A stretch of 64,000 nt of DNA from NCBI GenBank assembly GCA_964016885.1, contig OZ024751.1, forward strand, positions 50,778,001 through 50,842,000, in the 5' to 3' direction. How positions within the stretch are numbered: the first letter of the stretch is position 1; each line of letters starts with the position of its first letter. The notes under the pieces are model-generated. The model did no database searches. It was not told the origin of the DNA and worked only from the letters and a program-made list of their open reading frames with translations. The DNA comes from Eledone cirrhosa (taxonomy: Eukaryota). Positions 12,838 to 33,544 of the stretch are shown here, piece by piece. The translations under genes were made by a program, and so were the position numbers.

Positions 12838-15378
12838 ATGTTTTTACTTTCGGTTTTTCTGCTAAAAACCAAACATGTTTATTCATTGACATTCTTTCTA
12901 ATATTATTACATACCATTCCGTTATCATTGGAGATTAATATTACCATTATTTGCCGAAATCACGAGAACGTGGTGAAACATTGGCTTAAAATTACCTCAT
13001 GCTGTCCATATTGTCTTACCATAGAACGAATGTATTATTTAGATTGTGTTTTCGATTACATTGACTTGACAAACAAAATGCCGGGCTGTTTACGACCAGT
13101 CAAACGCAAAAGAAAAAATCAAATGATTTTTATGAATCCTGTGTATATGATTGTAAATGATTATGACAAAAGTGTTTCGGTGAATTTCTTGTTCCAACAA
13201 GACAGTTCCAGGTTTACTAAGAGATCGAAATGGGAAAGTTTTGTGTCAGTCTTTTCAAATATTTCAAACAAAAGCAATGTTATATTCAAACTTATTGTTC
13301 TGTGTGGAGATTCGATAATAAGATTAATTCCAACAAATGCCATTAAACAAATTTCTTTGATTATGTATTTCAAAATTTGTTTTAAAAACAATTCGTATCT
13401 TCATGGTATTTTGGGTCACAAATATTCTTGCAATGACCGGATTCCTAATTATCATCCATGGAAAGAGTTTCATCAAATTCTGTCAAATTTCTCAAATTTT
13501 ACAACAGAAAATAAGGAAGTTATCTTAAGAAGCTGCATCAATATCAGCAACATCCCTGAAAAAATAAAAAATCGACTGACAAAAATATGCCGGTCCCAGT
13601 GGAGAAACAACCAGATGTATTTTAGCGTCAGATCAATGTCTTTCAATATTGTCTTGGATTCTTCCAAGAGAGAAATGTACTTCGGTGTCAAATATATAAA
13701 CTTTCCTTTAAGTAAATCATGTCTTCAACGCAACCGATTTAATCGTGTCTTCAATGTAACAGATTTATTTCAGACGATATTATACGATTTCAACTGTTTT
13801 GGTGTTATAAAAATCAATTCTATTAACCAGGTATTATTTCCAATATCTCAATATAAACTATGGTTTCGTAACTTTAACTCTAAATATAAGAAACGATTTA
13901 ATACGTGTAAATATTTGCTAATGTTTAATACATATATACACCAGTTACCACTTAGTAAATATACTCCAAAGCCATCGTTTTTAACATTTAAGTATCAGCC
14001 ACTACCAGTCTTACTTCATTCAATAGAACCAAACAAAGGTCTAGCTGTGGGAACATACTGCACTTTTCAACAATATTCAACATTTATCGGAAAAGATTAT
14101 AACATTACACTAATGGATAGTTTCAATTTTACCACGAAAGAAATGATAAAATCTCATTATAATTCTTTGATATCCGAAAATGTTTCTATCAAAAGAACTC
14201 AGCAGACTTTGAAAAAAAAGTCAATGAAAAGTTATTATTATCACGGTTCTAGAAGAAAACGAGAGCTATCACAATATAGAGACCATTATGTTCATGATGT
14301 ATCAATGAAAGTAAAAAGGCCAAATATTTCTAAATATTTCAAGCATTCGTCGTTAAATCATATGACACAGAAGCGAAAGTTTAACCAACTTAAAGGTCAT
14401 TCGAAGGAAATCCTCAATATGGACAATCAAACTTTACATATCTGCAAACAAGGTGTTAACTGTAAACTACCAACTTGTTGGTGTTTTGGCAAACAGCCTG
14501 ACTTTGATAGCAGGAACATACCCCAGTTTGTGTATTTTACATTCGATGGAATCGTTGACAATATTAGCTACGAAAAAATAGCCTATCTCTTCTCACACAA
14601 CAGAACAAATGAAAATGGCTGTCAAATACGTGCCACGATTTTTGTAACTGGTCTGGCGTCGGATTATAAAGAAATAAATCGGCTGTATAGGGCCGGGCAC
14701 GAAATAGCATTAAATGGACTTAGCAACGACGTTGTTGACCCTTTAATGGAACCTCTCGAAATAGTCGTTCAGAAGAAATTACTCGAACGCTATGCAGGAA
14801 TCCCTGAGCTTTATATAACTGGCTGGAGAAACAGCCACGAGACCTGGAGATGGAATAAACAACTGGATTATTTGAAGAAGTACAATATGGTGTATGATTC
14901 TTCTCTCGTAATAAAACCGTCGAACATCGGTGAGCGGGGAATATGGCCGTTTACATTAGAATTTGGCTGGGATGAAAATTGTCAAAATAGCAGCTGTAGA
15001 TTAAAAAGGAAGAGGCTAGAAGAACTATGGGAAATTCCATCAATTCTTTATTTTGATTTGGAAACTTCTCATCTATGTTACTATATAGATGATTGTTTTA
15101 ATAGACCTCACACATCTGTAGAAACCTACGACTATCTAGTTCATAATTTCCTCAGTGCACGTAAATATAAAATGCCCTTTGGTGTACGTTTGAGAAGATA
15201 TTGGTTTGATAACGATAACAATCCGAGTTTTAAAGGCCTTGATGCTTTCATCAAATTTCTAGTGGAGCTCGACAATGTATATTTAGTGAGTATATCTGAT
15301 CTTATTGGATGGATGCGACATCCACAGCCGATCTTTACAGAGAGAAATATAAAACATTTTCTCGGTATTGGGTGTTAA
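12838..15378 (+). CDS. Secreted chitin deacetylase-like (CE4/NodB) protein with one degenerate C-terminal domain and an uncharacterised N-terminal region
   Basis: Open frame 12694-15378; first ATG with a hydrophobic leader (MFLLSVFLL...TFFLILLHTIPLS) at 12838; the C-terminal ~310 aa has CKQGVNCKLPTCWC, PQFVYFTFDG, NGC, YDSS, WPFTL, WEIP and PFG motifs of the insect/mollusc CDA-like family; start codon uncertain. Confidence 0.85.
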   Translation: MFLLSVFLLKTKHVYSLTFFLILLHTIPLSLEINITIICRNHENVVKHWLKITSCCPYCLTIERMYYLDCVFDYIDLTNKMPGCLRPVKRKRKNQMIFMNPVYMIVNDYDKSVSVNFLFQQDSSRFTKRSKWESFVSVFSNISNKSNVIFKLIVLCGDSIIRLIPTNAIKQISLIMYFKICFKNNSYLHGILGHKYSCNDRIPNYHPWKEFHQILSNFSNFTTENKEVILRSCINISNIPEKIKNRLTKICRSQWRNNQMYFSVRSMSFNIVLDSSKREMYFGVKYINFPLSKSCLQRNRFNRVFNVTDLFQTILYDFNCFGVIKINSINQVLFPISQYKLWFRNFNSKYKKRFNTCKYLLMFNTYIHQLPLSKYTPKPSFLTFKYQPLPVLLHSIEPNKGLAVGTYCTFQQYSTFIGKDYNITLMDSFNFTTKEMIKSHYNSLISENVSIKRTQQTLKKKSMKSYYYHGSRRKRELSQYRDHYVHDVSMKVKRPNISKYFKHSSLNHMTQKRKFNQLKGHSKEILNMDNQTLHICKQGVNCKLPTCWCFGKQPDFDSRNIPQFVYFTFDGIVDNISYEKIAYLFSHNRTNENGCQIRATIFVTGLASDYKEINRLYRAGHEIALNGLSNDVVDPLMEPLEIVVQKKLLERYAGIPELYITGWRNSHETWRWNKQLDYLKKYNMVYDSSLVIKPSNIGERGIWPFTLEFGWDENCQNSSCRLKRKRLEELWEIPSILYFDLETSHLCYYIDDCFNRPHTSVETYDYLVHNFLSARKYKMPFGVRLRRYWFDNDNNPSFKGLDAFIKFLVELDNVYLVSISDLIGWMRHPQPIFTERNIKHFLGIGC

Positions 15379-15779
15379 ATATTGATATAAACATGAACAT
15401 GTCTACCATATCGATATAGATCTCAAGCCCATCATCTGTGAAACGTGTGTGACAGTCGGTATTCAATGAAAGCATTTTAAAGTGAAACTTCGTCATATCG
15501 AAAAACAGTTACATAAGACAAACCAACAATTGTATCCCTACCTCGTCAGCCACCTTATTTCCGTGCAATTTTGCACATTTATGTGATATTGTATTTGTAT
15601 TGCCAGTTTGTGCAACAGATTGGAGAAATATGCATGTGTGTATATGTAAAGGGATACACACACACACACACACACACACACACACACACACACACACACA
15701 CACACACACACACACACACACACACACACACACACATATATATATATATAGTAATATTAATATTGTAAATAATAATAAG

Positions 15780-33100: not shown

Positions 33101-33544
33101 GAAAACAGGACTGGGGTTTGGCCGTCGACTTTAGATTTTGGATGGAAGAACAATTGCTTGCTACAACAATGTCCTACTAAAACATTTAAGGGTATTTGGG
33201 AAATTCCTGCTGTTCCTTATGTCGGAATTAAAAAAAGATATTTGTGTAAATTTGTGGACAGTTGTTATAACAAACCTCGAACTGCGGTGCAAACCTATGA
33301 TCTCCTTCTCAATAACTTTATGGCTTTTTATAAAAGAGACCGAACGCCGTTCGGTGTTCGCTTGCGAACAGAATGGTTTCTACCGAGCAACGAAGAAAAC
33401 CTGAAAGGTTTAAACGCTTTTCTGGGCCTGGTTGAGGAATTGACTGATGTATACATTGTCAGTCTGAAAGGATTGATTGCCTGGATGAAAGATCCGATTA
33501 TTCCTGATGATGAAAACCTTTCACCTTCAAAGATCGGCTGTTAA
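30119..33544 (+). CDS. Secreted two-domain chitin deacetylase-like protein (intact N-terminal CE4 domain, Ser/Thr-rich linker, degenerate C-terminal CE4 domain), 1141 aa
   Basis: Signal peptide MNSQSFFVLSLAVISAFVVSS; domain 1 has SFDD, HGVNH, RSPF, YDS and LNMH motifs; domain 2 has TYEG, HGLKT, RNID and VRLR; single uninterrupted ORF. Confidence 0.93.
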   Translation: MNSQSFFVLSLAVISAFVVSSSIRNTPHECKRCAAIGHCSLPNCSCCGYAIPGKKSQRPQLVYFSFDDAVTVRNGPLYEELFNENRTNPNGCPISMTLFVSHNDTDYSLVKQFYSKGMDIAVHGVNHIRPQNALQFSYEALGQRFNLANNSEIPQEEIVGFRSPFLIAYGNEQYEILSKAGFVYDSTLTITKTSLVEESPIPFTLDCGWPYPCSIPECPTEHINGFWEVPIVTVIDKQGHYPCVYVDGCANSPTNEEESFNFLLENFMSYYTMNKAPFGLNMHSTWLLQEYETNPYRMKAMNRFLDYILSLDDVYVINMKQIVEWMKYQPTLKDLSNFVPFQCSSQTNSSLNQTGSSLNQTDNSLNQTDKSLNQTDSSPNQTTGSLNQIDSTLKLSTDSPIQSIVSEETLSLTRLATTVLMSETTTNVMAEDTEVDNNNEANIRTQSIQIQQIPDNSISEDHFQSTPSQTQPISNSFISTRQVILSTPTPLNVASRNEFEDIPLVSQTQLNEFTVRERTSNNVPGSQTTSVLRKRSPETNASLDKQNGDETVITQSFTDGIAEEANKNTRHLSNQESSNSNTHRRNENNQGNIDINRHSFHDVFRRKSSLFRLAAALVLENDMDLQKIITKDSSNHDGAVILVAKNNSIEKQLLTNKEFREPVILIHNKQQRLNYENRLKELHDVRPETTTKNLSKVKLTESRQMENSNIPSSDTTENILPKEEILSSKKTKLLSLVRRKYLKMKYAKQRKPSSDYTPGINIYNRGRRTRLGRPVILPAKYARSALLPGIEKSQEYSADSLERQLKQTSYNNNNNNNSPSKSNDESNVSVTEFCQQGRNCKRPDCQCQQFYITNDLKKIPQFVYFTYEGPINSSIADKLKELFHAERLNANGCRVKNTLFVTSEGSNYTSIKELYDEGMEIALHGLKTKSLTDKLLNIEIALQKYLLNRYANISHDEIAGWRNIDLHSNGNIQFRNLQNSNMLYDSSMFVMTNLENRTGVWPSTLDFGWKNNCLLQQCPTKTFKGIWEIPAVPYVGIKKRYLCKFVDSCYNKPRTAVQTYDLLLNNFMAFYKRDRTPFGVRLRTEWFLPSNEENLKGLNAFLGLVEELTDVYIVSLKGLIAWMKDPIIPDDENLSPSKIGC

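Follow-up and report, generated by a model that had tools for sequence, protein, structure and literature searches.

We analysed a 64,000-nucleotide stretch of the Eledone cirrhosa genome (hereafter the window; contig OZ024751.1 of assembly GCA_964016885.1, positions 50,778,001 to 50,842,000) that carries two genes, here called A and B, related to the chitin deacetylases (CDAs) of carbohydrate esterase family 4 (CE4). The original prediction, made from the sequence alone, described them as an enzyme and pseudoenzyme pair with a shared degenerate domain. Six-frame translation recovered all of the motifs that it quoted, at the places given and on the plus strand. Both genes end in a CE4 domain that lacks the Asp-His-His metal triad, and only gene B has an additional intact domain. 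The features are listed below by position in the window.

12838-15378, plus strand: gene A, a single open reading frame (ORF) of 846 amino acids, with a likely signal peptide, a 470-residue front region, the sequence RRKR and a C-terminal pseudo-CDA domain
12838..12930, plus strand: predicted signal peptide of gene A (weak; hydropathy peak 2.03 at residue 17)
12931..14250, plus strand: front region of gene A, open, fast-evolving and rich in F, Y, M, I, N and K
14251..14262, plus strand: RRKR furin-type site of gene A, kept in 3/3 octopodid A sequences; putative cleavage
14440..15375, plus strand: pseudo-CDA (CE4) domain of gene A, with TFDG, NGLSN, WRNS and PFGVRLR and 10 cysteines
30119-33544, plus strand: gene B, a single ORF of 1141 amino acids, with a signal peptide, an intact CDA domain, a 489-residue linker and a pseudo-CDA domain
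30203..31147, plus strand: intact CE4/CDA domain of gene B, with SFDD, HGVNH, RSPF, YVDG and LNMH; matches PF01522 above the cut-off (E 2.5e-6)
31148..32614, plus strand: linker of gene B, free of cysteine and rich in S, T, N and Q
31715-31723, plus strand: KR-S dibasic site in the gene B linker, common to 5/5 B-type proteins
32615..33541, plus strand: pseudo-CDA domain of gene B, with TYEG, HGLKT, WRNI and PFGVRLR and 10 cysteines; predicted CE4 barrel

Using the CE4 motif roles given in PMC6463723, we compared the three domains. The front domain of gene B (SFDD at 30311, HGVNH at 30485, RSPF at 30602, LNMH at 30956) holds all six catalytic and metal residues (the triad, base Asp, motif-3 Arg, motif-4 Asp and motif-5 His) and by its motifs is predicted to be an active-type CE4 chitin deacetylase. 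At the triad positions, the domain of gene A (TFDG at 14539, NGLSN at 14713, WRNS at 14824, PFGVRLR at 15175) has Gly, Asn and Asn, while the rear domain of gene B (TYEG at 32714, HGLKT at 32888, WRNI at 32999, PFGVRLR at 33347) has Gly, His and Thr. The first metal His is thus retained in the latter and gone in the former, neither holds the triad, and the motif-5 catalytic His is replaced by Arg in both. The two degenerate domains are related, as had been proposed, but at 42% identity (129/308) not closely so. Both end in IGC followed by a stop codon (at 15367 in gene A and 33533 in gene B). This ending, to which the original prediction drew attention, is real, but its cysteine is an ordinary family residue, present in 32/32 intact and 42/46 degenerate domains of the sample described below, which rules out a special cross-linking tail. 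Pfam detected PF01522 in gene B and nothing in gene A, and at E values up to 1 found neither a chitin-binding domain such as CBM14 (peritrophin-A) nor LDLa in either.

Both reading frames appear to be genuine. Each is spanned by one unbroken contig in 3/3 DNA-like sequencing runs of one sample, and therefore the frames are not assembly joins. The runs behave as DNA in that the flanks of the frames are evenly covered; they may be the source of the assembly itself and add no independent biology. In one run's contig, an allele at position 30739 turns the unpaired Cys207 of gene B into Trp, and two further run differences, at 31764 and 32325, alter residues of the gene B linker; with a depth under 5, all of these may be errors. 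Residues 12-37 of gene A are in register with residues 12-37 of its Argonauta orthologue (42% identity over 26 residues), which supports the position of the start. For the gene A front region, the probability that 475 codons stay open by chance is approximately 3e-17.

We then placed the degenerate domains among their relatives. A family profile built from six of them retrieved 2570 proteins at E values up to 0.001, and the best 150 of the 2570 were used. Domains were cut from 170 proteins (215 domains), and after those under 270 residues had been dropped (8), 207 entered the tree, in a sample biased by the query toward the degenerate clade. Forty-six degenerate domains formed one clade with a Shimodaira-Hasegawa support of 0.998, and in a 61-row subset from which the catalytic columns had been removed IQ-TREE recovered the same clade at 98/99. 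On this phylogeny the triad-less domains of A and B share one origin. The motifs had been proposed to be altered in parallel; the substitutions instead come from one ancestor, and independent parallel loss in A and B is ruled out by a clade that persists without the catalytic columns. Neither the metal Asp nor both metal His residues are kept in any of the 46 members. The metal Asp has become Gly in 42/46, and each metal-His position is occupied by 10 or more different residues. The catalytic motif-5 His has become Arg (23) or Lys (8) in 31/46 and is still His in 4/46. Other positions are conserved: Asp or Glu occupies the base position in 39/46, the motif-3 Arg is retained in 42/46, and motif 4 is Asp in 42/46 and Glu in 3. 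From these residues we judge the rear domain to be, very probably, catalytically dead.

The architecture of the clade is also stable. An intact domain, a linker and a pseudo-domain follow one another in 32 proteins, including the product of a third Eledone cirrhosa gene; the front domain could be scored in 35 clade proteins and is intact in 32/35. Linkers range from 40 to 997 residues, and ten cysteines are found in 30/32 pseudo-domains of tandem proteins. A species name is attached to fifteen of the 46 domains, in every case a mollusc (Octopus (2), Argonauta, Pecten, Haliotis (2), Sinanodonta, Tegillarca, Saccostrea (2), Potamilus, Babylonia (2), Pomacea and Nucella), and three more come from the Eledone cirrhosa genome. 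We infer from this distribution that the clade arose once, before cephalopods, gastropods and bivalves split. The pairing of enzyme and pseudoenzyme thus lies within one polypeptide, in three mollusc classes, rather than in two cephalopod genes as first framed. A further 23 domains with altered motifs fall outside the clade or serve as front domains; catalytic loss is common among animal CDAs, and what sets this clade apart is how old it is and how constant its architecture. Outside it, CDA domains lacking the triad were seen in the proteins designated P0105 (the chiton Liolophura), P0124, P0069, P0067, P0082 and P0048, the last a gastropod protein with both domains degenerate.

We also searched the 3.0-Gb Eledone cirrhosa assembly (1796 contigs). 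The rear domains of A and B were each used as query; 16 and 18 candidates were scored, and both searches ended with an identical set of 13 matches. One is the third family gene (G000:C11:42557952-42560983; L014 4949-7984, minus strand), which encodes 1011 amino acids in the order intact domain, linker and pseudo-domain, lies approximately 8.2 Mb from A and B on the same contig, and has the rear motifs TFDG, QGNGT and GVHLRH. The remaining matches include single-domain CDA genes with all motifs intact. A cluster of such genes occupies G000:C1:149.79-149.93 Mb (L007, L010-L012) and contains three copies, approximately 32 kb apart, of the same 352-residue frame, a recent duplication or an assembly repeat. 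The closest named relatives of B and A are from Octopus sinensis and O. bimaculoides, respectively. The rear domains of A and B group together (100/99). The sister group of A (100/97) consists of two A-type proteins, P0046 and P0052, whose front domain is eroded yet still recognisable; that of P0046 is sister to the intact domain of B (100/98). Since the rear domains group and P0046 and P0052 keep an eroded front domain, the trees identify gene A as having arisen from B by tandem duplication in coleoids and as having lost its active domain. The ENA contigs of P0046 and of P0005, an orthologue of B, both measure 93,642 bases, and by this match in length only a second coleoid may carry the tandem pair as well. 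Within the gene A front region itself we detected no CE4 similarity: two hidden Markov models scored below 200 shuffles and HHalign gave a probability of 0.1%, and the idea of a recognisable decayed CE4 domain there was dropped. By way of the tree and of P0046 and P0052 only, the region would descend from an eroded front domain plus linker. The Argonauta gene model lacks it and runs from the same signal-like stretch straight into the residues that immediately precede the domain; this may be a deletion or, indistinguishably, a gene-model artefact.

Comparisons between orthologues revealed which parts of these proteins are maintained. Between gene B and its Octopus sinensis orthologue, identity is 85% in the intact domain, 56% in the linker and 83% in the pseudo-domain; against P0005 the corresponding values are 72%, 21% and 63%. 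Gene A and its two orthologues are 40-53% identical in the front region and 76-77% in the pseudo-domain. The A-type proteins P0046 and P0052 provide an internal control, with 40% identity in the eroded front domain, 40% in the linker and 75% in the pseudo-domain. A CE4 domain without a job thus drifts like linker and the pseudo-domain does not, and therefore the latter is the part that selection keeps. By the median ratio of patristic distances, the pseudo-domain in 32 proteins outpaces the intact domain beside it approximately 1.5-fold in its rate of change (mean identity 40% for the former and 54% for the latter). The identity contrasts above place the pseudo-domain under strong constraint and, together with the clade and the residue counts, uphold the earlier proposal that a subfamily without the triad, standing next to an intact domain, is under selection.

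An AlphaFold2 model of the rear domain of gene B, built from 45 sequences, reached a mean predicted local distance difference test (pLDDT) score of 90.3 and a predicted template modelling score (pTM) of 0.91. Foldseek placed the insect enzymes BmCDA8 (5Z34) and BmCDA1 at the top of its matches, with template modelling (TM) scores of 0.83-0.85. A distorted (beta/alpha)7 barrel of the NodB/CE4 type is therefore predicted to be intact in this domain; for the gene A domain the same fold is suggested by its 42% identity to the modelled one, and statements about the pocket are based on the alignment. We also modelled P0037, a natural homologue with a short linker, as one chain. Its pTM of 0.70, compared with a rough estimate of 0.5 for two independent domains, is an uncontrolled hint, from a single model without a predicted aligned error map, that the two domains pack together.

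Among sequences with solved structures, the rear domains of A and B matched only insect CDAs, the best being BmCDA8 and BmCDA1 (E 2e-41 and 4e-36). BmCDA8 and BmCDA1 (5ZNS/5ZNT) share the five-motif site that is complete in the front domain of B (TM 0.85, 27-30% identity). Insect CDAs of groups I-IV carry peritrophin-A (CBM14), with or without LDLa (PMC2817921); in contrast to BmCDA8 and BmCDA1, A and B have neither CBM14 nor LDLa, their C-terminus is approximately 60-70 residues shorter, and the molluscan family pairs two CE4 domains in one chain, of which the rear one lacks the triad. Functionally the nearest parallels are the silent insect gut proteins BmCDA6 and TnPM-P42, which are CDA-like and inactive. 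No activity was detected for TnPM-P42 (PMC2817921), and BmCDA6 binds chitin as well as its active paralogues do and has been proposed to protect it (PMC7953033). These two are stand-alone members of insect group V, unlike the molluscan pseudo-domain, which forms a clade of its own inside the molluscan CDAs and stands behind an intact domain; they were compared by description, their sequences being outside our tree. The microbial CE4 pseudoenzymes EcCDA (2VYO), Ba0150 (4M1B) and 6HM9 likewise keep the fold and have lost catalytic residues (PMC10967932). They are distant (10% identity for 6HM9), of independent origin, and not reported there in tandem with an intact domain. Inactive CE4 proteins, and chitin-binding inactive CDAs in insects, are therefore already known. 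The molluscan family of intact plus degenerate domains is widespread, one half of a refuting circumstance named in the original prediction, but we found no characterisation or description of it in the full-text literature, subscription journals being mostly outside that search. In annotation the pseudo-domain is missed by Pfam and is labelled "uncharacterized" or "NodB".

A family member occurs in shell. In the abalone Haliotis laevigata, idb_6290 ("similar to chitin deacetylase") is a secreted protein of 1602 amino acids with two NodB domains, found in nacre and prism (PMC6003135); it is listed there in a table, and the passage concerned does not remark on degeneracy of the second domain. Of 34 peptides listed for it in one file, the 30 seen comprise 5 from the pseudo-domain, 6 from the intact domain and 19 from the linker, and the motifs that were checked map to P0039, which has the layout intact domain, linker and pseudo-domain. 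Because its peptides match P0039, we regard idb_6290 as a member of the family. It shares the family layout and differs from A and B by its subgroup, a 997-residue linker and a retained motif-5 His. The peptides from its second domain mean that a family pseudo-domain is translated, and through this protein the suggested tie to chitinous matrix gains support. Chitin deacetylases have also been reported from Lottia and unionid shells (PMC3374290, PMC6542584, bioRxiv 10.1101/2022.09.07.507049 and PMC3544910). These sources show a tandem architecture for none of them, nor for the cuttlefish CDA considered below; the Lottia shell CDA Lotgi1|181237 is a 330-residue model without it (PMC3374290). The main text of the Argonaut eggcase preprint contains no mention of a deacetylase.

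Taken together, the absence of the triad from 46/46 clade members, the single clade, the fixed tandem layout, the constraint and the abalone shell relative support a reading, which we hold to be somewhat better than an even bet, in which A and B are secreted-type proteins and the pseudo-domain is a non-catalytic module that anchors the domain predicted to be active to chitinous matrix and helps it there. The CDA domain would have duplicated internally before the cephalopod, gastropod and bivalve split. The rear copy would then have lost its zinc, with Asp becoming Gly, both His positions freed and the catalytic His mostly becoming Arg or Lys, while the Asp-Arg positions, the motif-4 Asp and five disulfides would hold the barrel folded. 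With a long disordered linker as tether, it could replace the CBM14 module or the accessory protein of insect CDAs; BmCDA1, for instance, needs the accessory protein CPAP3-A1 (PMC6463723). We adopted BmCDA6 as the functional model, by analogy. In coleoids gene B would have duplicated in tandem and copy A would have let its active domain erode, so that gene A would now likely supply a lone pseudo-domain; freed by cleavage at RRKR, this would bind matrix in trans and shield or organise the substrate.

Several observations weigh against this anchor and helper role, which rests on sequence, model and analogy. Aromatic residues conserved in the intact domains have largely gone from the clade: they fall from 84% to 2% at motif 3, from 94% to 0% at the Tyr of GWPY and from 94% to 41% at a position aligned by eye with a cleft Phe of BmCDA8, and therefore classical sugar stacking in the old cleft is less likely. 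Arg or Lys stands at one of three pocket positions in 39/46 members, and the net charge of the pseudo-domain exceeds that of its partner domain in 22/32; such a basic pocket would suit an anionic partner better than chitosan. Furin sites are not enriched in the linkers (6/32 versus 7.9 expected), which rules out family-wide furin processing. The abalone protein is minor, at 0.00006-0.03% by intensity-based absolute quantification (supplementary files 1-12 of PMC6003135), and belongs to another subgroup than A and B. Finally, cuttlefish haemocytes strongly express some chitin deacetylase or other (PMC7551771), and molluscan CDAs are therefore not purely structural.

The loss of cleft aromatics from a scaffold that is otherwise kept would also fit a possible, if doubtful, alternative in which the pseudo-domain is a protein partner. 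By docking, it would form a pseudo-dimer with the intact domain and act as its on/off switch, with A as a trans regulator of B or of single-domain CDAs. BmCDA1 is inactive without its partner protein (PMC6463723), so that intact motifs are no guarantee of activity; a pseudo-domain seldom occurs without an intact domain fused to it, and the uncontrolled P0037 model hints at packing. Linkers of anything from 40 to 997 residues fit docking poorly, however, as does the octopodid A protein, which keeps the pseudo-domain with no intact domain in cis, and the few conserved residues specific to the pseudo-domain look mostly structural. We think it quite unlikely that the domain instead serves the matrix structurally, as a folded spacer or cross-linker that binds no particular ligand. 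Its faster evolution and variable surface positions would suit such a role, but keeping a 310-residue fold with five disulfides is costly for a spacer, and this one persists in three classes and is all that A has conserved.

We consider it very unlikely that the domain hydrolyses some new substrate without metal, as the allantoinase PuuE does on the same barrel. PuuE, a metal-free NodB enzyme (PMC10967932), is a fold neighbour, and an Asp or Glu base, a motif-3 Arg or Lys and a motif-4 Asp or Glu occur together in 38/46 members. However, PuuE retains the motif-5 His (PMC10967932), and its combination of motif-4 Asp and motif-5 His without metal is broken in the clade, where the His is gone in 42/46. 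Because this His is lost, metal-free catalysis is unlikely; moreover, the metal-His positions are free to vary, and no new invariant polar residue has appeared in the pocket. Finally, the degenerate domains are almost certainly not neutral relics, nor gene A a pseudogene. The front region of A has drifted rapidly, but both frames are open, domain orthologues are 76-83% identical, abalone peptides cover a family pseudo-domain, and a truly eroding CE4 domain of the same family has fallen to linker-level identity. Neutral evolution, named at the outset as what would overturn the proposal, is thereby largely contradicted.

The rest of the window provided further observations. The approximately 15 kb between A and B are repeat-rich, with 83 copies of a 59-bp unit (97% matches) at 21910-26809 and 16 copies of a 71-bp unit (98%) at 18489-19624. 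Long ACA/ACC-type trinucleotide arrays at 1-1334 and 4362-11950 contain stop-free frames of up to 2500 codons; these are simple repeats and show no sign of a gene. Downstream of B, on the minus strand, exon-sized WD40 beta-propeller matches at 45084-45395 and 54578-54784 mark a spliced WD-repeat gene of opposite orientation. At 61532-62564 a minus-strand frame that by eye resembles reverse transcriptase lies beside a weak plus-strand GIY-YIG match (E 0.001, below the cut-off), and is likely a rearranged fragment of a Penelope-type retroelement.

Mollusc shells and the hard parts of cephalopods are built on a chitin scaffold. The family described here is real, under selection, and both older and wider than first proposed, and entries named "chitin deacetylase" in shell proteomes include a triad-less domain. 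The pseudo-domain is one candidate answer to the question of how molluscan deacetylases reach insoluble chitin without CBM14, and the intact domain, the pseudo-domain and gene A as a pseudo-only version form a natural three-way comparison. More speculatively, and with well under an even chance of being right, a built-in pseudoenzyme partner that predates the conchiferan class split may set where and when the molluscan chitin deacetylase works, and coleoids may have detached it as a secreted gene of its own, A, to regulate chitin acetylation in trans. If so, this partner would offer a direct handle on the balance of chitin and chitosan in shell, pen, beak and eggcase.

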